NCBI GenBank assembly: GCA_029547265.1
Contig: JAKPPP010000332.1
Location: 2,090 to 66,089 of the forward strand
DNA: 64,000 nt
Reading direction: 5' to 3'
From: Bacteroidota bacterium
GTDB taxonomy: Bacteria > Bacteroidota > Bacteroidia > AKYH767-A > OLB10
The notes beneath the pieces are model-generated. The model was not told the DNA's origin, did no database searches, and worked only from the letters and a program-made list of their open reading frames with translations. The position numbers were made by a program, and so were the translations under genes. Position 1 is the first letter of the stretch. The number at the start of each line of letters is the position of its first letter. This document shows, piece after piece, positions 1,593 through 13,973 of the stretch.

Positions 1593-2051
1593 ATGTATAT
1601 AGGCTTACTTCACTTTCACTCTTTAGTACGATGGATTCTGTTACTACTAATGGTAGTTTCGGTTGTTAAAGCATTTGGCGGACAAAAAAGCGGTATTGCA
1701 TATACCGATAGCGATCGCAAGAGAACTATGTTCACGATGATATTCGGACATATTCAATTGGTGATGGGTTTAGTATTGTATATGGTTAGTCCTGCAGTGC
1801 AAGCAGCCACTGCCGATATGGGTGCGGCTATGAAAGATCCAATTCTTCGCTTCTGGGCTGTAGAACACGTAATGATGATGGTAATAGCAATTGTGCTTTT
1901 AACTATCGGAAATATAAAATCAAAGAAAGCATCAACCGATGCTGCAAAATTCAAAACAGTTGCAATCTGGTACGGAATTGCATTGGTACTTGTTCTGGTA
2001 ACAATACCTTGGCCGTTCAGAGCTGTTGGTGCAGGTCGCGGTTGGTTTTAA
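1593..2051 (+). CDS. Small integral membrane protein (4 predicted TM helices), function unknown
   Basis: 152-aa ORF with hydrophobic segments. The N-terminal LLHFHSLVRW motif is seen in conserved Bacteroidota membrane proteins. Confidence 0.55.
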   Translation: MYIGLLHFHSLVRWILLLLMVVSVVKAFGGQKSGIAYTDSDRKRTMFTMIFGHIQLVMGLVLYMVSPAVQAATADMGAAMKDPILRFWAVEHVMMMVIAIVLLTIGNIKSKKASTDAAKFKTVAIWYGIALVLVLVTIPWPFRAVGAGRGWF

Positions 2052-2087: not shown

Positions 2088-3347
2088 GTGCCTTCCCGTG
2101 TTCATAAAAACCAAAAGAATAATTTGCCTCATACTCCATTAACTGTAGGACAAGTTCCCGAAAGAGTAGTGTTAATCGGTCTAATCACTCGCACGCAGAG
2201 TGCCGATCAAGTACAGGAATACCTCGATGAATTAGCTTTTTTATCGGAAACTGCAGGAGCCGAAACGGTTCGAATTTTTACGCAGAAGCTGGATCATGCT
2301 GATTCAAGAACATTTGTTGGGAAAGGAAAGCTCGAAGAAATTATTGAGTTTAATAAAGCCAATCAAATTCAAATTGCAATATTCGACGATGAGTTAACTC
2401 CGTCGCAACTTCGTAACCTCGAAAAAATAATGGGCTGTCGTGTGCTCGACAGAACCAATTTGATTCTCGATATTTTTGCGAAGCGCGCGCGTACCGCTCA
2501 AGCTAAAACTCAAGTTGAATTAGCGCAGTACAAATATCTTTTACCACGACTTACCAAAATGTGGACCCACCTTGAGAAACAACGTGGAGGTATCGGTATG
2601 AGAGGTCCCGGTGAATCGGAAATTGAAACCGATCGTCGTGTGATTCGTGATAAGCTAAGTAGGCTTCGTGTGAGATTACAAGAGATCGATAAGCAAAATT
2701 CAACACAAAGAAAGAAGAGAGGAGAAATGATTCGTGTGGCATTGGTAGGATATACTAATGTGGGTAAGAGTACTATCATGAATGTGTTGAGTAAGAGTGA
2801 AGTTTTTGCAGAGAATAAATTGTTTGCGACATTAGATACTACTGTAAGAAAAATAGTGTGGGAGAATATTCCGTTTTTACTTTCAGATACCGTAGGATTC
2901 ATTCGTAAGTTACCGCATGATTTAGTTGAATCGTTTAAGTCGACACTCGATGAAGTGCGTGAAGCAGATATTTTAGTGCATGTGGTTGATATATCACATA
3001 AAAATTTCGAAGAGCATATTCGCGTAGTGAATGAAACACTAGCTGAAATCGGCGCTATCGATAAGCCGATCTTAATGGTATTTAATAAAATTGATGCCTA
3101 TAAGTATGTCGAGAAAGAAGAAGATGATTTAACTCCTTCAACTCGAGAAAATATTTCGTTGGAAGAAATGAAAACGCATTGGATAGCTAAGAATAATTAC
3201 ACTTCTGTTTTTATCTCTGCTATCAACAAGAAAAATATTGATGAGTTACGTGCTGCATTGTCGGGATTAATTAAACAAATTTATTTTGTGCGCTACCCGA
3301 ATAATCAGAACTATATTCAAGATACTTACGATTTCGAAGAACAATAA
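2088..3347 (+). CDS. hflX: GTPase HflX
   Basis: HflX N-domain (ERVVLIGL...EYLDELAFLSETAGAE...GKGKLEEI), linker helix (QVELAQYKYLLPRLT...GGIGMRGPGESEIETDRR) and G-domain motifs (GYTNVGKST, DTVGF, NKID). The track start is GTG at 2088; an in-frame TTG at about 2124 is an alternative. Confidence 0.9.
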   Translation: MPSRVHKNQKNNLPHTPLTVGQVPERVVLIGLITRTQSADQVQEYLDELAFLSETAGAETVRIFTQKLDHADSRTFVGKGKLEEIIEFNKANQIQIAIFDDELTPSQLRNLEKIMGCRVLDRTNLILDIFAKRARTAQAKTQVELAQYKYLLPRLTKMWTHLEKQRGGIGMRGPGESEIETDRRVIRDKLSRLRVRLQEIDKQNSTQRKKRGEMIRVALVGYTNVGKSTIMNVLSKSEVFAENKLFATLDTTVRKIVWENIPFLLSDTVGFIRKLPHDLVESFKSTLDEVREADILVHVVDISHKNFEEHIRVVNETLAEIGAIDKPILMVFNKIDAYKYVEKEEDDLTPSTRENISLEEMKTHWIAKNNYTSVFISAINKKNIDELRAALSGLIKQIYFVRYPNNQNYIQDTYDFEEQ

Positions 3348-3413
3348 ACGATTGTAATTATTTGTGGTCGCTTAATTGCTTTTAAGTGATGTAGGTTTGC
3401 GCAAAATCTAATC

Positions 3414-4121
3414 ATGAAGGCAGTTGATTTTATTCGGCAGGTATTACAAGACACGATTTCTATTTTATATCCTTCATTATGTGCGGCCTGCGATGAATTA
3501 TTGTTGCAAGGAGAAGATGTCATTTGCACGCATTGCATGGTTAATTTACCACGCACTTATTTTCATCAAATGCCCGATAACCCTGTGGCAAAGCAGTTCT
3601 GGGGGAAAGTTCGCCTTGAAGGAGCTACTGCCTTGTTTCATTTTCATAAAGGAGAGAAAGTACAAACGTTGATGCACCGATTGAAATACAATAATCGTCC
3701 TGAAATAGGGAATAAGTTAGGAGCGGTATGCGCAACTGAAATCATGAAATCAGAATCCTTTAATCAAGTAGATTATATTATTCCCATTCCGCTTCATAAA
3801 AAGAAGCAAAAAATCAGAGGCTATAACCAAGCATATTGCTTTGCACAAGGCATGGCCGATATTTATGGTAAAGAAGTATTGAAAGACGGACTTAGGCGCA
3901 TTAAGTTTACCGATACTCAAACCCGAAAAAACAGGTTCGACCGACATAAAAACGTGAAAATGGTGTTTCGGGTCACTAAGCCCGACCGATTTATAGGTAA
4001 AAAAGTAATGATTGTTGACGATGTGTTAACTACCGGGTCGACATTAGCAGCCTGTATTCAGCTTTTTAACGCGATTGAAGGCACAAAAGTAACCGTAGCT
4101 ACAATTGCCTATGCAGAGTAA
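3414..4121 (+). CDS. comF: ComF-family protein (amidophosphoribosyltransferase-like)
   Basis: N-terminal Cys pairs (CAAC...CTHC) and a C-terminal PRTase motif (VMIVDDVLTTGSTL). Confidence 0.8.
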   Translation: MKAVDFIRQVLQDTISILYPSLCAACDELLLQGEDVICTHCMVNLPRTYFHQMPDNPVAKQFWGKVRLEGATALFHFHKGEKVQTLMHRLKYNNRPEIGNKLGAVCATEIMKSESFNQVDYIIPIPLHKKKQKIRGYNQAYCFAQGMADIYGKEVLKDGLRRIKFTDTQTRKNRFDRHKNVKMVFRVTKPDRFIGKKVMIVDDVLTTGSTLAACIQLFNAIEGTKVTVATIAYAE

Positions 4122-4151
4122 AAATTGATGGTTATCTTTGCCGTGAAAATT

Positions 4152-4652
4152 ATGGCAGAAAACCTCATAAAAGCGGCAGCAGACGCTAGCAAAGAAGATC
4201 GGTACCAAGTGATGATTCCGCAAATTAAAGCGTTGGTGGAGGGGGAAACCGATTTAATTGCCAATATTTCTAATGTGATGGCTGTCCTAAAAGAGACAAT
4301 GAATTTCTTTTGGGTTGGGGTTTACTTTGTAAAAGCTGAAGAGCTGGTTTTGGGACCTTTTCAAGGTCCGCTGGCTTGTACTCGCATCGGTTACGGCAAA
4401 GGTGTATGCGGTAAAGCATGGCAAGAAGGAAGAGTGATTATTGTTCCTGATGTGGAGCAGTTCCCCGGACATATTGCTTGCAGCTCATTGTCGAAGTCTG
4501 AAATTGTATTGCCTGTAATTATTAACGATCGAGTAAGAATGATACTTGATGTTGATAGTGATCAGCTCAACGACTTTGATGCAATAGATGCAAAATATCT
4601 TTCAGAGGTTACGGCAATTATTAGTGATGTTTTTAAAGCAACGATGATATGA
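4152..4652 (+). CDS. GAF domain protein (free methionine-R-sulfoxide reductase-like, YebR/MsrC family)
   Basis: WVGVYFV...LVLGPFQGPLACTRIGYGKGVCGKAW...VIIVPDVEQFPGHIACSSLSKSEIVLPV is the typical fRMsr GAF signature. ATG 4152 (MAENLIK) is preferred over the upstream TTG 4125. Confidence 0.75.
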   Translation: MAENLIKAAADASKEDRYQVMIPQIKALVEGETDLIANISNVMAVLKETMNFFWVGVYFVKAEELVLGPFQGPLACTRIGYGKGVCGKAWQEGRVIIVPDVEQFPGHIACSSLSKSEIVLPVIINDRVRMILDVDSDQLNDFDAIDAKYLSEVTAIISDVFKATMI

Positions 4653-6253
4653 AAAAATTATTGATGCTTATTTTGAGTGTTCTATTTATTGCATCTTGTG
4701 CCAATAAAGTTACACCTACCGGAGGAGAGAAAGATATTAAACCTCCAGTGGTGAAAGAGTCGGAACCGATAAATCCTGCAATCGATTTTCATGGACGAGA
4801 AATTAAATTGAAGTTTGATGAGTATGTGCAGTTGACTGATTTAAACGGACAGCTATTAATATCACCGTTAATGCCATCAACTCCCGATATTAAAGCATTG
4901 AAAAAGGAAATTCTTATAAAACTTCCTGATTCATTAAGAGAGAATACAACGTATACTATTAATTTTGGAAAGGCGATATCCGATATTCACGAGAGTAATG
5001 CAATTGAGAACTATAAATTTATTTTCTCTACCGGACCAATTATTGATTCTTTATTCATTCAAGGTACAGTTCGAAATGCAAAAAACAACGAGACCTTGAA
5101 AGGAGTATCGGTAATGATGTACCGAAAAGAAGGTGTAGAGAATGCGGATTCACTTGTGTTCGTAAAACGCCCTGATTACTTCTCTAAAACTGACGATAAA
5201 GGAGCATATACTATTTCCAATGTTTCGGGAGGAGAATATTATGTATTTGCATTTGAAGATAAGAACAATAATTACAAATGCGAAGAAGATGAATTGCTCG
5301 GTTTTATTGATCGTATAGTTAAGCTGCCCGGAGAATCGACCGTCGATTTTAAATGTTCTTTGCAAGAGCTACCTGTTGTGAGAGTAGCAAAGGTTTCCAA
5401 GAAAGATCGTTATTATTTCTCTGTGGGATTAAACAAGCCTGATTCTACTGTGAAAGTAGAAGAGTTAAATGGAGTAGATAAAAGTAAAATCATTCAAGAG
5501 TGGAATGCTAATCATGATACCTTAATGGTATTTACGAATGATACTTTGCAAGAAGCAATTAAGTTAAGGATTTTCGACGGTAAAACGTTAAGTGATACTG
5601 TAGATGTGAAAATGATATCCGGAACATCGAAGAAAAAAGAACAAGAGAAGCTGAATTTGTTTGTTTATCAAACGCCTGAATCATCTGATACAAGTGTGAG
5701 TATGATGCTTAAAAGTGAACATCCGATAAAGTCAAGCAAAGGATTTGCCTATATTTATCGTGATACATTATTGGTAGATTCAGTTACTCCGGCAATAAAG
5801 AAGGGCGAATATCAAAGAGAATTCAATATTAATTATAAGTGGAAGAGAGGCGATCAGTATAGAGTGATGATTCCTTCCGGTGTATTTACCGATATCTATG
5901 GGTTAACGAATGATACGCTGAATAAATCTTTTACTATGACAACAGATCGATTGTCGGGGGTGTTGATTGTGAAAGTACGCGGATTATTTCCCGATAAAAA
6001 ATATCTGCTACAACTGACATCGGAAAAGTTAGACGTAATAAAGCAATTAGAAATTAAAGTCGACGGAGATTATAAATTCGAATATATCAATCCTTCAAGT
6101 TATAAAGTAAGGTTGGTTGACGATGCTGACCAAAATAAAGAGTGGACGCCGGGTAATATCCGCAAGAAGCAACAACCGGAGCGAATTGCTGTTACCGACA
6201 ATTTGCAAGTTCGTAAAAACTGGGAATTAGAAACTGAAATAACAATACAATAA
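4649..6253 (+). CDS. Ig-like (SbsA/Big_5-type) domain lipoprotein
   Basis: Lipobox LFIASC followed by TPTGGEKDIKPPVV...IDFHGREIKLKFDEYVQL, the conserved N-terminal Ig-like module of this Bacteroidota lipoprotein family. The start overlaps the upstream stop (ATGA). Confidence 0.65.
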   Translation: MKKLLMLILSVLFIASCANKVTPTGGEKDIKPPVVKESEPINPAIDFHGREIKLKFDEYVQLTDLNGQLLISPLMPSTPDIKALKKEILIKLPDSLRENTTYTINFGKAISDIHESNAIENYKFIFSTGPIIDSLFIQGTVRNAKNNETLKGVSVMMYRKEGVENADSLVFVKRPDYFSKTDDKGAYTISNVSGGEYYVFAFEDKNNNYKCEEDELLGFIDRIVKLPGESTVDFKCSLQELPVVRVAKVSKKDRYYFSVGLNKPDSTVKVEELNGVDKSKIIQEWNANHDTLMVFTNDTLQEAIKLRIFDGKTLSDTVDVKMISGTSKKKEQEKLNLFVYQTPESSDTSVSMMLKSEHPIKSSKGFAYIYRDTLLVDSVTPAIKKGEYQREFNINYKWKRGDQYRVMIPSGVFTDIYGLTNDTLNKSFTMTTDRLSGVLIVKVRGLFPDKKYLLQLTSEKLDVIKQLEIKVDGDYKFEYINPSSYKVRLVDDADQNKEWTPGNIRKKQQPERIAVTDNLQVRKNWELETEITIQ

Positions 6254-6257
6254 AGAT

Positions 6258-6686
6258 ATGGCTGATTCAAACGAGTTAATCAATTCATCGAAAGCGCCTG
6301 AGCCTGTAGGATTATATCCGCACGCGCGCAGAGTTGGAAATTTATTATTCTTATCAGGTGTTGGTCCTAGAGAAAAAGGAAGCAAAAAAATACCGGGAGT
6401 TGAATTAGATGAGAATGGAAATATTGTGTCATACGATATTGAAACGCAATGTCACTCTGTTTTCAGAAACATCCGCTATATTTTAGAAGATGCAGGAAGC
6501 AGCTGGGATAAGATTGTTGATGTAACGGTATTTTTAACCAATATGAAAGACGATTTTAAAACCTATAATCGTTTGTATGCCGAATATTTCAAAGACAATC
6601 AGCCTTGCAGAACTACTATTGAAATAAATTGTTTGCCGACACCTATTGCAATTGAATTAAAAGTGATTGCAACTATAGGAGATTAA
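6258..6686 (+). CDS. ridA: RidA-family (YjgF/L-PSP) enamine/imine deaminase
   Basis: APEPVGLYPHARRVGNLLFLSGVGPR...DVTVFLTNMKDDFKTYNRLYAEYF...PCRTTIEINCLPTPIAIELKVIA matches the RidA fold signature. Confidence 0.85.
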   Translation: MADSNELINSSKAPEPVGLYPHARRVGNLLFLSGVGPREKGSKKIPGVELDENGNIVSYDIETQCHSVFRNIRYILEDAGSSWDKIVDVTVFLTNMKDDFKTYNRLYAEYFKDNQPCRTTIEINCLPTPIAIELKVIATIGD

Positions 6687-8005
6687 GGATTAAAAACACG
6701 TGATGCGGGTAGTTCTCTTTCGAGGATTACTCGCATTTCATTTTTAAATAAATTGTCGTCACTGCTTTCCATTGCTCCTTTAATCAGTGAATGATTGTTT
6801 TTGTTTTCTGCCAATAGCAAACGAGCCGCACAGCAACGAACATATAATGGTTGAGAAAGGTTATTGAAAATGCGGTGAAGAGAATCTGAAATCGTTTTTG
6901 GAATAGGGGCAGGGTAGTCAATCATAAAATGCAATGCACAATACAATTGATAGCTGAATTCGATTCTATTTGAAACAAGAAAACTGGCTAACGATTTATC
7001 AATATTGATTTCGTTGTTTCTATAATGCATTAGGTAGCCTGTTATGGCCTCAGGGCGAGCCAGTAAGCGTTCCTCGCAATTGACCATTCCTAATGCTTCT
7101 TCTATTGAATAATAATATTTTGAAAGTCCTGCAGGCAATTCTTTGATTGTAGATTTAACTTTATCCTTGAATGTTTTTTTTCCGGCTAAAGCATTCTTAA
7201 TAGGTTGCGCCGACACAAACTTTGTTTTTTCTTCCTTCAAGTACATTCCGCGTTTCGATATGAAAGCTACTACTTCAAAGTATGCTTTTCGAGCATCTGA
7301 TTTTGAATGACAAAAGATTTCAATATTATCAATATAGCGAGCAAAAGAGTAGTTGCTATGTCGTAAAAAATTGTCGAAAGGGAATAAATAAAACTCAGCT
7401 AAGATATCACTAGCCCAAAATATTTGAGGTAATCCTCTGCCGGTTAAAGCAGCCCAAGCCGACATAGCTTTGCATAATGAAGTTGCGTAGTTAGCAGGTA
7501 CACCGCAATCAATCAATTCTTTCTCTAAAATTTTGTGGTCAACACTCGTGTAGAAATTGGTGATGTCGGATTGAAACACAAACTGATGTTCCGGCTTTAA
7601 ACTTTGATAAACATATTCAAGTTCTTCTAAGTTGTTTCGGAATAACTTCTTTTTCCAATTAATATCTACGGGATACTCTTCTAATACACTTTGAGGTGAA
7701 GCAATTTCCGGTTTGATCTTTTTTATAATGAATGGGAAACATTTAATTGTTAACCAACAAAAGTATAACTGATCTTTTATGTCAAGCACAGAATAGTAGC
7801 GAAACATTCCACGCTCTTTCGGTACTTCAATTAATCGGCAAGGTTGAATTGAGTAAGAACCGTTTTCGAATGATTGTTCAAGTTCATCTAAGAATGTAAG
7901 ATCGCTATGATACAACACTTCCAAGTCAGATGGAAGTTCGATCATATAGCAATCACGTTCTCTGAATGCTTTAATAATAGATACGGCTAATTGAATATCC
8001 CGCAT
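6683..8005 (-). CDS. Reverse transcriptase, orphan UG/Abi-like type, with non-canonical motif C (YIDN) and an alpha-helical repeat C-terminal domain
   Basis: RT motifs were read by eye. Motif 1-2 is IEVPKERGMFRYYSVLDIKDQLYFCWL. Motif A is FVFQSDITNFYTSVDH (D147, nt 7565-7567). Motif B is GRGLPQIFWASDILAEFYL (GRGLPQ at nt 7424-7441). Motif C is FARYIDNIEIF (YIDN at nt 7325-7336, verified codon by codon). Motif D/E is GMYLKEEKTKFV. The C-terminal ~170 aa is helical and HEAT-like (...LYVRCCAARLLLAENKNN...). Confidence 0.8.
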   Translation of the reverse strand: MRDIQLAVSIIKAFRERDCYMIELPSDLEVLYHSDLTFLDELEQSFENGSYSIQPCRLIEVPKERGMFRYYSVLDIKDQLYFCWLTIKCFPFIIKKIKPEIASPQSVLEEYPVDINWKKKLFRNNLEELEYVYQSLKPEHQFVFQSDITNFYTSVDHKILEKELIDCGVPANYATSLCKAMSAWAALTGRGLPQIFWASDILAEFYLFPFDNFLRHSNYSFARYIDNIEIFCHSKSDARKAYFEVVAFISKRGMYLKEEKTKFVSAQPIKNALAGKKTFKDKVKSTIKELPAGLSKYYYSIEEALGMVNCEERLLARPEAITGYLMHYRNNEINIDKSLASFLVSNRIEFSYQLYCALHFMIDYPAPIPKTISDSLHRIFNNLSQPLYVRCCAARLLLAENKNNHSLIKGAMESSDDNLFKNEMRVILERELPASRVFNP

Positions 8006-8010
8006 AAAAA

Positions 8011-9708
8011 CTATTTAGAATTGCTTTTTAAATAAAATTTGTAATCAATACTGAATTTCCCCGGTCCTGTAAGTAATAAGAATACGAACACAGCCAACAA
8101 AGATAGTGGATGTAATGCCGCATCGATGCCTTGACCCGAAAATAAATGCTTTGAACTGGCTATAATCATATTAAAGCACAACATGAATGCTACAGGACGA
8201 GTTAATAATCCTAAAACAAGTAATAATCCACCAATTGTCTCTGTTGCAGCAGCCATATAACCCCATGCAACCGGATGAAAGAAGATACCGAAGTTAGCTA
8301 AAGTTTGTCCAAGGGATAACCATGCCGGCAATCCTCCTAAAATTTTCGGTACTCCGTGGTATATCATTATAATTCCAATAAGAACTCTAACCAAGAAGAT
8401 AGCATTGTTCTCGGAAGTCTCTCGATAGTTGAACGCCCATCGTGGTTGCTTCCATAAGAAAAACACTAAGCCTACTATGATTAGCAATGTACAGAATAGC
8501 ACATCGGGATATTTCCACGATTGTAAGCGATTGACAATTTTTTCTGATACAGTTCTCTTTTGGTTAAATATTTTCCAACTATAAAAATTGCCGATTCCTA
8601 TTGCTAGTTGCAGTGAATAGTCGAGAGAAATTGTTCCCGGTAAGTATGCTGTATTTTCATTTGCATTTACATTGAACCAGCTCAACCTTTCTTTTGTTGT
8701 ATTTGTTTCTGAAGGAGCTCCTTCCATAATAAAAGGGAAAGAAGCTGAACCATGACAGGAGATACAAGATGATTGCGGATTGTCAATCATTCCATTTAAT
8801 CGCCCCGCCCATCCTAAATGAGCAATAGGTCGAATAGAAGGATTGATATACGTTTGATAAAGCGGTTTGTCTTTTACGTTTTCGGGAGTCACTCCTGCAT
8901 CATTTCCCCATGATAATCCGACAGGCATAACACGTAACCACGGATTTTCATTTTTCACATCTCCATTATACACTAAGTTTCCCATTATCCAACCGGTAGT
9001 TGATTTCGCTCGTGAATCTTTAACAGAAAAATCAATTTGCAATAAATGCATCTTCTTAAGTTCACGTTTAGTGCTATCCCATGCTTTACGATAAACATAA
9101 GCAGTTGTTGATGGTGCTCCTTTTAAATAAGGCACTTCTGTTGAATCAGCTTCAGTAAAAATAACTTTAGCTGATACTGTTCCTTCAGGGAAAAGAGCTT
9201 TGCTAGGATCAGGATGGTTATGGTCTTTCCAAACTTGTCCTACAGTATAACCTCCGGCAGGATTGTAAAATCCTACAGCCCAATTTTGATAAACTGTTTC
9301 TTGAACGGGACTTAATTCATGGGGACGAGAATCTCGTTCACGAGTAATTCCGTTTAATGGTTCACGAGCCATATCAACACCACCCGATATGCGATAATGC
9401 ATCCATGGTGCATGATACCATTTACGAACTTTGTTGTCTTGCACAATCCAGTCAGCTTCGATATTACCTTCGAGTATATAATTATAAACTGCCATAATGT
9501 ATTCGGTAGGCTGTGTTTTATAATCATACTTTAACCAAGGAAGATTTTTTTCAGGTGTAACAGATGTTGGGTAATCTTGACTTAAATGAAATATCTTTCC
9601 CGTCCATTCTTTAGGAGCCGGAACACTAGCATCAGGAAATCGTTGGGCGATTCCCTGAATTGAGAATAATACTGTTAAAAACAGCAATACTATTTTTTTG
9701 TAATACAC
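8011..9708 (-). CDS. Exported protein with a single CxxCH heme-c motif fused to a C-terminal DoxX membrane domain
   Basis: Signal peptide MYYKKIVLLFLTVLFSIQGIAQ (GTG start). A ~390-aa soluble domain contains CISCH (aa 315-319, nt 8752-8766, verified). It is followed by one TM helix and a DoxX-like 4-TM region (VRVLIGIIMIYHGVPKI...ETIGGLLLVLGLLTRPVAFML...LLLTGPGKFSID). Confidence 0.6.
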   Translation of the reverse strand: MYYKKIVLLFLTVLFSIQGIAQRFPDASVPAPKEWTGKIFHLSQDYPTSVTPEKNLPWLKYDYKTQPTEYIMAVYNYILEGNIEADWIVQDNKVRKWYHAPWMHYRISGGVDMAREPLNGITRERDSRPHELSPVQETVYQNWAVGFYNPAGGYTVGQVWKDHNHPDPSKALFPEGTVSAKVIFTEADSTEVPYLKGAPSTTAYVYRKAWDSTKRELKKMHLLQIDFSVKDSRAKSTTGWIMGNLVYNGDVKNENPWLRVMPVGLSWGNDAGVTPENVKDKPLYQTYINPSIRPIAHLGWAGRLNGMIDNPQSSCISCHGSASFPFIMEGAPSETNTTKERLSWFNVNANENTAYLPGTISLDYSLQLAIGIGNFYSWKIFNQKRTVSEKIVNRLQSWKYPDVLFCTLLIIVGLVFFLWKQPRWAFNYRETSENNAIFLVRVLIGIIMIYHGVPKILGGLPAWLSLGQTLANFGIFFHPVAWGYMAAATETIGGLLLVLGLLTRPVAFMLCFNMIIASSKHLFSGQGIDAALHPLSLLAVFVFLLLTGPGKFSIDYKFYLKSNSK

Positions 9709-9767
9709 GGTAATACAGTTTAAAAGGCTGATCGGTTAAAATACGCAGAAGAGCCTAATTTGTTACG

Positions 9768-9794
9768 ATTGCAATTTGCAATTTTACAAAGATA
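9768..9794 (-). promoter_or_regulatory. Putative Bacteroidota -7 promoter box followed by a 15-bp perfect palindrome (candidate operator) upstream of the CxxCH-DoxX/RT gene pair
   Basis: The minus strand reads TAtcTTTG (plus 9787-9794), matching TAnnTTTG. A few nt downstream is ATTGCAA-A-TTGCAAT (plus 9768-9782), with 7-bp arms and a 1-nt centre. Confidence 0.35.
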
Positions 9795-9817
9795 ACTCTT
9801 TGTAAATCAGCGAGTAA

Positions 9818-10570
9818 TTAGATGTTGAACCATCTAACTAGGTCATCGGCGATAATTGTCTTTTTTTCGCTCTCAGAATAATCCTTTTCGATACTCCCTT
9901 CTCTCATCATTATCAGACGGTTACCGTAATTAGAGGCGTCTTTCATCCGATGAGTAACCATTATAGCAGTAAGGTTTCCTTCACGAATTATTTTTTCTGC
10001 TAATTCCATGACAATTGCAGCCGATTTCGGGTCGAGGGCGGCGGTTGGCTCATCGAGTAGCAGGATTTTGCTTTCATCCATCACCGACATTAATAATGTT
10101 AAGGCTTGTCGTTGTCCCCCCGACAAACTACCCATTAATGCCTCCGGTTTGTTTTCAAGGCCCATATTGAGGGTCTTTAATTTATCACAAACGTTTTTTC
10201 TGAATGATTTAGTGTTCCCTATTGAGAGTGATTTCGATCGTGTTCGCAAAGAAGCCAATCTGAAGTTTTCGAGAATGGATAATTCGGATGCTGTACCTGC
10301 TAAAGGATTTTGGAAAATGCGACTGATATATTTGCTGCGTTTATAATCGGGTAGCTTTGTTACATTACTACCGTTAAATATAATCTCGCCGCTATCAGCA
10401 ATCAAAGAACCCGAAATTAAATTCAATAAAGTAGATTTTCCTGATCCGTTGAAACCAACAACAGTAATAAAATCACCTTCATTGATTTTTAAACTCAAGT
10501 TTTTTAGTGCAACTATTTCATCAGCACTACCTCTGTTAAAAGTCTTCGATATATTTTTAATTTCTATCAT
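9818..10570 (-). CDS. ABC transporter ATP-binding protein (COG1101-type, partner of the ABC_sub_bind system)
   Basis: Walker A GFNGSGKST, signature LSGGQRQ, Walker B ILLLDEPTAALD, H-loop VTH. The start overlaps the permease stop by 4 nt. Confidence 0.85.
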   Translation of the reverse strand: MIEIKNISKTFNRGSADEIVALKNLSLKINEGDFITVVGFNGSGKSTLLNLISGSLIADSGEIIFNGSNVTKLPDYKRSKYISRIFQNPLAGTASELSILENFRLASLRTRSKSLSIGNTKSFRKNVCDKLKTLNMGLENKPEALMGSLSGGQRQALTLLMSVMDESKILLLDEPTAALDPKSAAIVMELAEKIIREGNLTAIMVTHRMKDASNYGNRLIMMREGSIEKDYSESEKKTIIADDLVRWFNI

Positions 10571-11427
10571 GCCTTCGAGGTGAATTTTATTTTTCCGAAA
10601 GCAATAATTGATAATACTAATACCGCAGTAATCAATTTTAAATAGTTTGGATCGATACCGATATTTAGAGCCGTAGCTAATATCAATCGAAATAAAATAC
10701 AGCCTAAAACTACAGCGATCAATTGCAAATATATTTTGCGTGATACTGCATTTCGCAAAACAACATCTCCTATCATAACAGCACCTAAGCCTGATATAAC
10801 AATTCCGATACCCATATTTATATCACCGAATCCTTGATATTGAACAATGAGCGATCCGCTTAATGCAGTTAACGAATTTGAGATTCCTAAGCCGATAATT
10901 TTCATTTTATCAGGATTTACTCCCATCGATTTTACCATTGACTCACTATTGCCTGTTGCTCTTAATGCTATACCCATATCACTTTTGAGGAATGCATTAA
11001 TAAGAATAATAAGAACAACAGAAAATACAAATAAAATTATAGAGCTATGATCTGAATTCGTCGAAGGACTCATTAACAAATTATCGATGTTAATGAGTGG
11101 TTGATTGGGTCTGCCTAAAATGGCTAGGTTTATAGAGTATAATCCGGTCATAACAATTATGCCGGCAAGTAAAGGATGAACTTTTAATCGTGTGTGAATT
11201 GTTCCGGTAATAATGCCAGCAATAGCTCCTGCTATCATCGCTGCAAAAACTGCAATCACCGGCGACCATCCGTTCACTAACATCCACGCAGTGATAATCC
11301 CTCCCGAAGTATAACTTCCATCGGTAGTAATGTCAGGAATATTCAAAATTCTCAAGCTTAAAAAAATTCCCAAGCCCAATGCAGCAAATGCAAGGCCTTG
11401 GTGAATAGCTGTGAGGTAGAATTCCAT
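10567..11427 (-). CDS. ABC transporter permease (COG4120-type)
   Basis: 286-aa polytopic membrane protein in an operon between the binding protein and the ATPase. It overlaps its neighbours by 1 nt and 4 nt. Confidence 0.75.
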   Translation of the reverse strand: MEFYLTAIHQGLAFAALGLGIFLSLRILNIPDITTDGSYTSGGIITAWMLVNGWSPVIAVFAAMIAGAIAGIITGTIHTRLKVHPLLAGIIVMTGLYSINLAILGRPNQPLINIDNLLMSPSTNSDHSSIILFVFSVVLIILINAFLKSDMGIALRATGNSESMVKSMGVNPDKMKIIGLGISNSLTALSGSLIVQYQGFGDINMGIGIVISGLGAVMIGDVVLRNAVSRKIYLQLIAVVLGCILFRLILATALNIGIDPNYLKLITAVLVLSIIAFGKIKFTSKA

Positions 11428-12392
11428 TATTGAATTTGTGTAAATGATGAATCAGGTTGAATGTTGAATACTTGAGCTACTTTAGAATTCATCACTTTCA
11501 ATCGAATATTTACAATTTCAGGCTTGAGCGTTATAATATTCTTATCTTTTAAAAAAGTTGCTGCTTGCAATCCCGATTGATATCCCCATTGGTACATATC
11601 AGCACCAAAACTTGCCAATGCTCCTCTGGAGACTAGTCCCGCTTCAGACGTGAGAATCGGAATATGTTTATCGTTACAACTTTTAACAATAGTTTCGAAG
11701 CTCGAGAAAATTACATTGTCGGGTAAAGCAAAGAATACATCAATATTTTTATCGAGAAGTGATTGCGTGATTAATTGCGTTTCCGATGAATTGGTAACAG
11801 GAATGGCAATTACTTCAATCCCTTTTGTAGCACAAACTTTCTTTAGTCGATTTAATGCATCAACTGATTGCGATTCCGACTGACTATAAACGGTTCCAAC
11901 TTTTTTTGCTTTCGGGAATAATTCATTTACCAAGGCTGCTGAAGTATCAATATAGTCGAGTGTTTCATAGGTCCCGAAGAGATTTGATGGGGCATTACCT
12001 GATTTATCTGTTAGTCCGGCAATATCGGGACGAGGAGCTACCATCATGAAAACCGGAATTCCCTTCGATCTTTGAACCGCATTAATTGTGGCTAGTGTAG
12101 TATTACTAGCAATTAAGTCGGGCTTTTCAGAAACCATTAAGTCGATTGCCTGTAATAAAGTTGGCTGATCTCCTTGAGCATTCTTGTAATTTATCTTCAA
12201 AGTGTTATTCTCCTCTGAAAATCCGTTTTTTGACAAAGCATCGATAAATCCTTGTTTCGCTTTGGCTAACGTTGCATCTTCAACAAAATCGATAAAGCCT
12301 ATTGAAGGGATTTCTTTTTTATCTGTTTTAGAATTACAAGCAGAAAACGATAAAAATGCTAAAAGCAATAATAAGCGATTATTAATTTTCAT
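11427..12392 (-). CDS. ABC transporter substrate-binding lipoprotein (ABC_sub_bind / COG2984-type)
   Basis: Lipobox LSFSAC, then IGFIDFVEDATLAKAKQGFIDAL...KPDLIASNTTLATINA, typical of the PF04392-like periplasmic binding family. Confidence 0.7.
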   Translation of the reverse strand: MKINNRLLLLLAFLSFSACNSKTDKKEIPSIGFIDFVEDATLAKAKQGFIDALSKNGFSEENNTLKINYKNAQGDQPTLLQAIDLMVSEKPDLIASNTTLATINAVQRSKGIPVFMMVAPRPDIAGLTDKSGNAPSNLFGTYETLDYIDTSAALVNELFPKAKKVGTVYSQSESQSVDALNRLKKVCATKGIEVIAIPVTNSSETQLITQSLLDKNIDVFFALPDNVIFSSFETIVKSCNDKHIPILTSEAGLVSRGALASFGADMYQWGYQSGLQAATFLKDKNIITLKPEIVNIRLKVMNSKVAQVFNIQPDSSFTQIQ

Positions 12393-12455
12393 GATAAGGA
12401 GTTTAATTTATAACAGAACAAACTCTTTAATGTTTTTAAAGAATCGGAATTCTAA

Positions 12456-13973
12456 TTATTCATCTTTTAAGATGGCTTCTTTATTACTCTTGAAGTGCTT
12501 TTCACATAAATCGATTAAGTCGGAACATGCCGAGCGATAAAACGGTGCTTTGCTATTTATGAGAGCCTCTTTAAAATCGGTTGTTTTGCCTTTTTTGGAA
12601 GCTCCTTTCAAGAGTTGAATGAAGTACGAATTCAAAAGATAACGAGGATGATCAATTGCATCGCATCGGTAGTTGTTTGCTTTCTCGAAGTTTTCTAGTG
12701 CTTGATCTCTTCGGTTGTCGATGAAATAGCGAAGGGCATTTAATTCAAGAGATATAATAGCACTGTCATGGCGATGCATTGAAGAATCGTTGACTACTTT
12801 TTCGAGATCATTAAATAGTAAAGTCGTGTAATGCTCCTCACCTCTAAGTGTCATGATAGTAAATATCAAGCTTCTCCACTCGCAAATTTGGATCCATGCA
12901 TTACGACCTAACGCTTGCTTCCATGATGAACGGAATACTAAATGTTCTGCCTCGTTTAATGCTTTTAGCGCTGTATTATAATCTTGAACATCAAGTGCAA
13001 TTAAGGCCTTGTTGATTTTAATAAAAGCTCTTTCTGATTCCTTGCCGCTATCTTTAGTGAAAGCTTCAGCTCTTTGCAATAATTTATAACGGTGATCTAT
13101 ATCCGAATTTTGATGATACAAAGCTACAAAGCTGCAAAGTAATTGTTCAGCTTCTGTATGCTGAGCAATAATTGTATCTAAATTCTCCGCCACATGGTCG
13201 ATATAACTTGCAAGGGTTATCGAAGGATTAGGGAAAATTAATCCCAAGCGAATGATCTTGCTAAGCAAATCACTTTTCGTAAATCGGTTAGGCTCTAACG
13301 TTAGTAACTGTCCGAATTCCTCGAAAAGTTCATTTATGGCCTGATAATTAAATTTGCCAAGTAATGCGTCTTTTTCATGCTTAATAAGAACTAACGACCC
13401 TCTCGATTGACGATATAATTGGTGAGTTCGCGCATAAGCGCTATCGTACATCGATAGAAAATCGTCGAGGTTGTCGCCATTTCTGGTGTCGTTGAAGAAA
13501 GGTTGATTCGTGCGATAGAAGTGAATCAAAAGTTCATACGCTTCTCTATGATTCAACTTTTTCTCGAAGTCTTCCACCTCATTGGTCATGGAATAAGGCG
13601 GGTGAATTGCCAATGATTCCGTCAAGCTCGAGAACTCCTCAAACAACGGTTGGTAGTTCATCTGCTTTGCTACCAGCTGTTTATACTGATCAGAATGGAT
13701 GATAGTGTCAAGATCTTTTTCGATCTCACCAATCATTGCTTTATATTCTGTTGCCTTAATTCTTCTGAATCGTCCTTTTGATAAAGCTAATGGATTAAAA
13801 CCGGTAGATGTTCTATACATATCGAAAAGCGAGACAATCAGATCGTACCTTTCCGGCGAACTGTTCTCCCCGAGACGCGACAACACATAATCTAACACCA
13901 GCTTGTTTTTAGGCAACTGGTGGATATTTAGGAGGGTGTCTTTGGTCGGTTTCAGTTCTTGCATAAATCCCAC
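12456..13973 (-). CDS. Hypothetical all-alpha protein with TPR-like C-terminal half
   Basis: 505-aa ORF with no signal peptide or TM helix and no catalytic motif that I can recognise. The C-terminal half has TPR-like helical hairpins (DYNTALKALNEAEHL..., DQALENFEKANNY...). Confidence 0.5.
   Translation of the reverse strand: MGFMQELKPTKDTLLNIHQLPKNKLVLDYVLSRLGENSSPERYDLIVSLFDMYRTSTGFNPLALSKGRFRRIKATEYKAMIGEIEKDLDTIIHSDQYKQLVAKQMNYQPLFEEFSSLTESLAIHPPYSMTNEVEDFEKKLNHREAYELLIHFYRTNQPFFNDTRNGDNLDDFLSMYDSAYARTHQLYRQSRGSLVLIKHEKDALLGKFNYQAINELFEEFGQLLTLEPNRFTKSDLLSKIIRLGLIFPNPSITLASYIDHVAENLDTIIAQHTEAEQLLCSFVALYHQNSDIDHRYKLLQRAEAFTKDSGKESERAFIKINKALIALDVQDYNTALKALNEAEHLVFRSSWKQALGRNAWIQICEWRSLIFTIMTLRGEEHYTTLLFNDLEKVVNDSSMHRHDSAIISLELNALRYFIDNRRDQALENFEKANNYRCDAIDHPRYLLNSYFIQLLKGASKKGKTTDFKEALINSKAPFYRSACSDLIDLCEKHFKSNKEAILKDE

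Follow-up and report, generated by a model that had tools for sequence, protein, structure and literature searches.

How does a reverse transcriptase (RT) come to be conserved with asparagine in place of one of the aspartates that hold its catalytic metals, and what does it do in the company in which it is found? The question is raised by an RT gene on the minus strand of a 64,000-nucleotide stretch of DNA, hereafter the window, from a Bacteroidota bacterium (GenBank assembly GCA_029547265.1, contig JAKPPP010000332.1, positions 2,090 to 66,089 of the forward strand). An earlier annotation made from the DNA letters (the sequence-only reading) had described the gene as an orphan RT with YIDN for YxDD in motif C, had placed it by exclusion among the UG/Abi defence-associated RTs, and had offered three explanations: a tolerated substitution, a recently inactivated copy or a non-polymerising scaffold. 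Here we report that the protein is a Class 1 UG/Abi reverse transcriptase, including its C-terminal helical domain, and that its gene is no orphan but is tightly coupled, as the second of two genes in an operon found in all lineages examined, to a partner gene that we call PX. Membership of Class 1 UG/Abi is the known part of the finding; what is new is that the Asp-Asn (DN) site is conserved, that PX is an obligate partner and that the pair is inherited with the core genome. This is more than a lone degenerate RT, yet narrower than first suggested: the class was already described, and of the three explanations offered one is excluded. On balance we lean towards a domesticated Class 1 UG/Abi RT that would act as a slow, protein-primed nucleotidyl transferase in a PX-coupled operon.

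Each motif quoted in the sequence-only reading was located in the 440-aa translation, which starts at an ATG: PKERGMFRY and DIKDQLYF, QSDITNFYTSVDH (motif A, with D147), GRGLPQIFWASDILAEFYL (motif B), RYIDNIEIF (motif C) and GMYLKEEKTKF (with K260). The motif C codons TAT ATT GAT AAT were confirmed at minus-strand positions 7336-7325 and, since the nucleotides of the RT gene show no differences among six independent public assemblies, the Asn codon is real and not a read or assembly error. The Pfam profile RVT_1 matches the protein far above chance (E=1e-13, 52 bits against a gathering score of 29.6).

The assignment to UG/Abi now has positive evidence. The best PADLOC match of the protein is RT_UG21 (8.9e-55, 184 bits), with aa 27-287 aligned in the best stretch to profile positions 28-288 of 503; Drt8 follows (2.6e-37), then UG22, UG32, UG20, UG19 and UG23 (all below 1e-29). 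An AlphaFold2 model built on a 26-sequence alignment, with a predicted local distance difference test (pLDDT) of 82.3 and a predicted template modelling score (pTM) of 0.80, consists of an RT core, a low-confidence linker at about aa 270-310 and nine helices within aa 294-429. The helical C-terminus proposed earlier is thus present, but it spans about 150 aa and not 170. When the model was compared with the Protein Data Bank (PDB) by Foldseek, the top matches were DRT4/UG15, DRT6, Abi-P2, AbiK and AbiA, which include the AbiK, Abi-P2 and DRT structures with which comparison had been proposed, and they extend over the full length (460-500 aligned columns). What separates the window protein from the DRT4 group is the low identity (13-18%) and, in DRT4 itself, a YIDD motif in which both aspartates bind metal.

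Class 1 of the UG/Abi RTs comprises RTs fused to an alphaRep domain and has UG21 among its groups (Mestre et al. 2022, PMC9226505). UG21 stands outside the groups listed with associated genes, its defence prediction was given as 'inconclusive', and it is experimentally uncharacterised (PMC9226505). The window protein resembles UG21 in its best hidden Markov model (HMM) match and in its architecture of RT plus helical C-terminus, and the tree described below puts it beside UG21, but true UG21 proteins have about 520 aa, PQG and Y/W-x-D-D, whereas here we find 440 aa, PQI and x-x-D-N, always together with PX. Its relatives with the same Asp-Asn pair in motif C (the DN clade) score 191-244 bits against RT_UG21, with a best stretch confined to profile positions ~25-290, while the true UG21 proteins P0016, P0023 and P0113 score 472-510 bits over positions ~5-502 of 503. 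Relatives of about 600 aa are UG13a proteins (615-719 bits), which also make up most of the matches listed by the profile-based homolog search. A neighbour-joining tree of the RT domain in 181 sequences, computed without bootstrap and without a reference UG21 set, shows the DN clade as monophyletic and as sister to 83 UG21-type representatives, not nested among them. Judged by the profile scores, the clade is UG21-like only and not typical UG21, because its matches are confined to the RT domain (184-244 bits) whereas those of true UG21 are full-length (470-510 bits). Of the features that define Class 1, the RT therefore shows recognition by UG/Abi profiles and an alphaRep-type domain but lacks the canonical triad (motif A Asp plus YxDD), having YIDN; of those that define UG21, it has the best match to the group profile and lacks the full-length match, the typical length and the stand-alone status.

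The DN pair is no peculiarity of one genome. Scanned in full with HMMER, 1.84 billion representatives yielded 13,598 matches, and among the best 158 aligned, in which motif C was tallied, the pair is DD in 144 and DN in 13; twelve of these 13 form one clade, and the odd one out is P0113, a true UG21 protein. With orthologs from fetched loci added, no exception to D226-N227 occurs in 12 lineages, each less than 90% identical to any other, the most distant of which shares 29% identity with the window protein. Motif C is thus invariantly DN within a monophyletic clade and DD elsewhere, which bears out the real variant clade that the sequence-only reading had allowed for. Both domains of the protein are constrained: the ratio of nonsynonymous to synonymous substitution rates (dN/dS) of the window gene is 0.048 against an ortholog of 89% identity and 0.069 against one of 77%, with values of 0.05-0.17 over the RT and helical domains. 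By these measures the DN pair is old and selected, and not a recent lesion. As a separate observation, P0113 (542 aa, a true UG21 protein at 510 bits) has RYSDN in motif C and another true UG21 protein, P0021, has RYVAD, so repeated losses of a motif C Asp have occurred in this branch of the family.

The remainder of the active site is retained. Invariant in the DN clade are K63 and R69 in the fingers, D147 and F151 in motif A, P193-Q194 in motif B, D226 and N227 in motif C and K260-T261 in motif D, and K63, R69, D147, F151, Q194, D226 and K260 are also invariant or nearly so in UG21 and UG13a. Three tyrosines are invariant in the clade as well, namely Y111, upstream of motif A, and Y298 and Y299. 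The first position of motif C is aromatic in nearly all DD relatives but Y, L, I, Q or E in the DN clade. The replaced glycine of motif B, noted earlier beside YIDN, is confirmed as PQI. The aligned sequences show no link between this change from QG to QI and DN, since QI, QM or QV is usual in UG13a proteins too, and these have DD.

The second line of evidence is the partner. PX lies directly 5' of the RT gene in 12/12 lineages, that is, wherever flanking sequence was available, and conversely every DoxX-fused PX with available downstream sequence is followed directly by a DN-clade RT. In the ten lineages measured, the two genes overlap by as much as 4 nt or are separated by as much as 6 nt (-4 to +6). 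Between ten lineages, RT identity and PX identity, compared pair by pair, are correlated at r=0.97, as co-inheritance would produce, with the RT evolving faster (29-44% identity against 47-61% for PX in the more divergent lineages). Promoters of Bacteroidota have the -7 consensus TAnnTTTG, which is fitted by TATCTTTG in the spacer 5' of PX, and the promoter of the operon probably lies there. This arrangement suggests that PX and RT have a promoter of their own, apart from the ABC transporter operon. The spacer also has a short block, TTTGCGTATTTTAA, that is common to closer relatives only. We found no paper that links an RT with DoxX, and the PX-RT pairing is previously undescribed.

PX itself (546-583 aa across lineages) begins with a signal-like helix, followed by an exported beta-rich domain of ~360 aa and the membrane domain that would anchor it, and its AlphaFold2 model has a pLDDT of 89. 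The membrane domain is matched by Pfam DoxX (PF07681, 1.2e-13, 51.9 bits against a gathering score of 23.6) and, in Foldseek, by the DoxX-fold protein NACHO/TMEM35A (TMt 0.66). For the exported domain, which has the c-type haem-attachment motif CxxCH, the profile Cytochrome_P460 (PF16694) gives E=0.016 and 16 bits against a cut-off of 27, the same family is recorded on several homologs, and Foldseek matches the P460 fold with a probability of up to 0.8 (E=0.17, TMt about 0.35); profile and predicted structure together hint at a weak likeness to cytochrome P460. The PX profile retrieved no match when the PDB was searched by sequence. Standalone homologs of the exported domain (~400 aa, about 48% identity) occur in many phyla, while the DoxX-fused form was found in only ~19 sequence clusters; two standalone P460-like genes have no RT adjoining.

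The exported domain (homologs P0195-P0295) belongs to a large, apparently uncharacterised family with an invariant CxxCH and ~45-50% identity, with members for example in Fimbriimonas, Methylococcaceae and Kentrum, and the Pfam Cytochrome_P460 model recognises the standalone ~400-aa family marginally. Three loci whose flanking genes are of another arrangement have a separate DoxX gene of 148 aa on the opposite strand, 0.5-1.6 kb 5' of PX (L015, 3979-4425; L016, 3967-4413; L018, 1406-1852). The DoxX module fused to PX may derive from such a small DoxX neighbour.

Thirdly, the pair resides among core genes. At least four unrelated sets of flanking genes occur, each consisting of core genes: an ABC transporter with RidA, as in the window; multicopper oxidase and MscL beside enolase and citrate synthase; an Mrp-type ATPase; and amino-acid permease and transaldolase. 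The neighbours in the window are core genes that include HflX, RidA, a phosphoribosyltransferase and the ABC transporter. A 14-gene block that includes PX and RT is kept in a locus whose RT is 44% identical (L008) and, bar one unmatched gene, in one at 41% (L012), so that synteny extends from 100% to 41% RT identity. At L008 the neighbours diverge in parallel (HflX 83%, RidA 89%, PX 58%, Big_5 43%, TonB 47%), which indicates vertical descent of the locus; the RT is among the faster-evolving genes of the block and no outlier. An identical RidA protein was found in ten places in different samples, with PX and RT present in 10/10, and the pair is fixed in the population. Neither mobile-element genes nor defence genes were found within ~10 kb of the RT gene, and the PADLOC matches of the neighbours are generic domain similarity only. 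The locus is core and vertically inherited, is no defence island, and shows none of the defence-island or patchy, mobile distribution that is a feature of Class 1. The clade is small, rare and confined to uncultured Bacteroidota, with five of 185,579 species-representative genomes (all of them metagenome-assembled genomes of Bacteroidota) and four of 241 million metagenome records. Coordinates of the features discussed are collected in Table 1.

Table 1. Features of the PX-RT operon, in nucleotide positions of the window
Feature	Position	Strand	Description and evidence
RT gene	6683..8005	minus	440 aa; UG21-like 'DN clade', Class 1 UG/Abi reverse transcriptase; open reading frame and translation, RVT_1, RT_UG21, AlphaFold2 and Foldseek
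Fingers and palm, aa 27-290	7136..7927	minus	Sole part of the RT that matches the UG21 profile (PADLOC)
Motif A catalytic Asp147 (GAC)	7565..7567	minus	Invariant in the DN clade
Motif C Y224-I225-D226-N227 (TAT ATT GAT AAT)	7325..7336	minus	Codons read directly; N227 in place of the second metal-binding Asp
Motif D Lys260	7226..7228	minus	Invariant in the DN clade, UG21 and UG13a
Y298-Y299 in the low-confidence linker between RT and helical domain	7109..7114	minus	Candidate protein-priming residues; invariant in all lineages; linker pLDDT 50-62
C-terminal helical (alphaRep-like) domain, aa 294-429	6719..7126	minus	Nine AlphaFold2 helices; Foldseek matches to Class 1 RTs; dN/dS 0.03-0.12
PX gene	8011..9708	minus	565 aa; signal peptide, exported CxxCH domain, DoxX membrane domain; Pfam, AlphaFold2
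PX-RT junction, 5 nt (TAG, TTTTT, ATG)	8006..8010	minus	Sequence read
PX C315-I-S-C318-H319, c-type haem-attachment motif	8752..8766	minus	C315, C318 and H319 invariant in 34 homologs
PX DoxX membrane domain, aa 437-563	8020..8400	minus	Pfam DoxX and DoxD; Foldseek NACHO/TMEM35A
Spacer 5' of PX, 109 nt, AT-rich	9709..9817	minus	Sequence read; probable operon promoter

What the RT would do with such an active site can be approached from its relatives. Characterised Class 1 RTs, among them DRT4 and AbiA, make single-stranded DNA without a template, starting from one of their own tyrosines. The metals of DRT4 are held by D149 and by D240 and D241 of its YIDD motif, with Y238 stacking on the primer 3' end, and the priming tyrosines are Y44 in AbiK, Y61 in Abi-P2, Y125 in DRT4 and Y298/Y303 in AbiA, those of AbiA being in the linker between RT and alphaRep domain. 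The invariant Y298/Y299 of the window RT lie in the same linker. By motif position, and not by alignment, D147 would be the counterpart of DRT4 D149. Because all other residues for deoxynucleoside triphosphate (dNTP) binding and catalysis are kept, we prefer, to judge from the pattern of conservation, a nucleotidyl transferase that is slow but active to an inactive scaffold. Such an enzyme would work without a template and would prime from a tyrosine of its own, as its Class 1 relatives do; by analogy, Y298/Y299 in the linker or else Y111 are the candidate sites. Catalysis would be slow, probably with a preference for Mn2+, and the enzyme would make short, covalently attached DNA and not long products, short products being suggested because the stacking aromatic of motif C is lost in most lineages. 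PX, in the membrane, would be the output or anchor to which this DNA-bound or assembly state is coupled.

For activity with this substitution in an RT we found one direct experimental precedent. Ty1 RT with D211N, in which the second Asp of YXDD likewise becomes Asn, keeps its dissociation constant (Kd) for dNTP and its processivity, while kpol falls 223-fold, Mn2+ is preferred and transposition is not supported (PMC2148107). That mutant differs in being an engineered form of a eukaryotic long-terminal-repeat retrotransposon RT, whereas the Asn of the DN clade is natural and selected. The mononegavirus L (GDN) and birnavirus VP1 (ADN) polymerases, natural enzymes of the right-hand type, are active with Asp-Asn in motif C; they differ in being RNA-dependent RNA polymerases, unrelated at the family level. 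We found no natural YxDN RT described in the literature.

Several points weigh against a slow nucleotidyl transferase coupled to PX. N227 sits at the position of DRT4 D241 (ungapped match, offset +14), which is a direct metal ligand, and in retroviral RTs mutation of this second motif C Asp destroys activity, as stated in the Ty1 study (PMC2148107). The motif C aromatic, which as Y238 in DRT4 stacks on the primer, has become L, I, Q or E in most lineages, and comparison of these motifs suggests that processive extension is not preserved. The RT would be cytoplasmic and PX largely periplasmic or in the membrane, and operon linkage alone leaves their coupling undefined. The priming tyrosines, too, are assigned by analogy only.

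The first alternative, which we regard as a serious but clearly less probable explanation, is that the protein is a pseudoenzyme, the RT fold serving as a non-polymerising scaffold or sensor that binds nucleotides or nucleic acids and regulates PX or assembles with it. The replacement of a metal-ligand Asp by Asn and the loss of the aromatic in most lineages would fit such a role, as would the shortened C-terminal domain without a match to the UG21 profile and the faster evolution of the RT relative to PX. Yet K63, R69, D147, F151, Q194, D226 and K260 are invariant at 26-31% overall identity, which would be unexpected if chemistry were dispensable, and Ty1 RT with the same substitution does polymerise (PMC2148107).

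A different proposal, tentative and of similar weight to the pseudoenzyme, concerns the purpose of the pair and not the chemistry of the RT: PX and RT might be no immune system at all, but a domesticated UG/Abi RT whose self-primed synthesis or nucleotide-bound x-x-D-N state is tied to a periplasmic, quinone-linked haem-c/DoxX redox protein. PX may, by analogy with known membrane effectors, be the output of the system; its conserved haem domain looks rather like a working redox protein. A hard-wired module of the abortive-infection type and a function in redox or envelope stress appear about equally likely. RT genes next to membrane-protein genes do occur in UG17/DRT10, in AbiA or UG23 with SLATT and in retrons with two-transmembrane (2TM) effectors, but the effectors of those systems are small and of the pore type and the loci are variable defence loci, whereas PX has 565 aa and an exported haem domain. 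In a literature search for an RT-DoxX link, none of DRT4/UG15, AbiK, Abi-P2, AbiA and DRT6 was reported with a haem/DoxX partner. The group II-like G2L4 RT, which acts in DNA repair, offers another case of an RT retained by its host for a cellular purpose (PMC11761039); it belongs to a different RT lineage and is not known to have a membrane partner.

It is improbable that the gene is an ordinary stand-alone UG21 anti-phage defence-associated reverse transcriptase (DRT) that tolerates D to N, with its place beside PX a matter of incidental synteny, although automated annotation would probably label it 'DRT, UG21'. RT_UG21 is its best HMM match, DRT4 is a single-gene phage-defence system and many Class 1 RTs are single-gene defence systems, and the true UG21 protein P0113 gained DN independently. 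The match, however, covers only half of the UG21 profile, and the overlapping or near-abutting PX-RT arrangement persists in 12/12 lineages while the flanks change completely. A stand-alone defence gene would also sit poorly with the lack of defence or mobile genes within ~10 kb and with a locus that is syntenic from 100% to 41% RT identity and fixed in the population.

Two last explanations carry next to no weight. A recently inactivated copy or decaying pseudogene, the one reading of the earlier three that is excluded, would have needed just one GAT to AAT transition but is refuted by an Asn that is encoded by AAT in some DN lineages and AAC in others and is invariant to 29% identity, by a dN/dS of about 0.05 alongside a dS of about 1.2 and by a reading frame that is unbroken in every lineage. 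The RT of a classical retroelement, be it a group II intron, a retron, a diversity-generating retroelement (DGR) or a CRISPR-associated system, has in its favour weak domain-level matches to group II and retron RT models and is refuted by scores far below the cut-offs and by the lack of Rfam intron or msr matches, template/variable repeats (TR/VR), cas genes and intergenic space.

The searches behind the second of these verdicts agree with the sequence-only reading, which had seen no intron RNA, no TR/VR pair, no cas genes and no room for msr/msd. Rfam at permissive E-values gave no match in 6000-10600, the only repeat in 3000-13000 was a 31-nt pair of 71% identity inside another gene, and there are no cas genes in the neighbourhood of the RT. 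PX ends 5 nt before the ATG of the RT gene, and the convergent RidA gene overlaps its stop codon by 4 nt. In 11 loci the spacers that precede PX (96-173 nt, AT-rich) share no sequence or structure, and downstream of the RT there is an overlapping gene or a gap (-4 to ~108 nt). A non-coding RNA partner was rejected on these grounds (no Rfam match, unconserved spacers and no intergenic room), and a DGR for want of a TR/VR repeat. The absence of an RNA component fits Class 1, because its characterised members need no template. NCBIfam models for group II, retron and Drt2-5 RTs are all far below their cut-offs, among them TIGR04416 (group II; 72.6 bits against 300, palm region only) and the retron model NF038233 (28 bits against 235); a placement with group II introns, retrons or DGRs, which would have overturned the earlier assignment, did not occur.

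The neighbouring genes were considered too. The RidA/L-PSP gene (6258-6686, plus strand), which converges on the RT gene, matches the C-terminal RidA-like part of the PADLOC model PD-T4-2_B (1.1e-18); as a component of the system it was rejected, being a highly conserved and probably housekeeping gene of a single genomic context, 88-99% conserved in syntenic loci and lacking in the remaining PX-RT contexts. The upstream ABC transporter was likewise rejected, as it is absent in other contexts. A phosphoribosyltransferase (3414-4121, plus strand) has PADLOC matches to PsyrT and ShosT at ~1e-12 and an HflX GTPase (2088-3347, plus strand) has matches to LeoA and LeoBC at ~1e-9; these look like generic domain similarity in a conserved core block. 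Two syntenic open reading frames, of 505 aa (12456-13973, minus strand) and 152 aa (1593-2051, plus strand), have no Pfam family on record and no PADLOC match, and the 505-aa frame equals the RT in its rate of evolution (43% identity, against 83% for HflX).

UG/Abi RTs are now seen as mobile anti-phage enzymes that need an intact YxDD, and the DN clade breaks three expectations: it has a fixed D to N change at a metal position under strong purifying selection, strict co-inheritance with a haem/DoxX protein and a stable position among core genes. The clade can serve as a natural experiment on the role of the second motif C Asp in untemplated, protein-primed RTs, and it is a candidate example either of a DRT-type enzyme that acts outside defence or of a membrane effector of a new type. 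Should the pair prove to be a domesticated, redox-linked one, it would provide the first link between an enzyme of the RT family and envelope redox or stress physiology.

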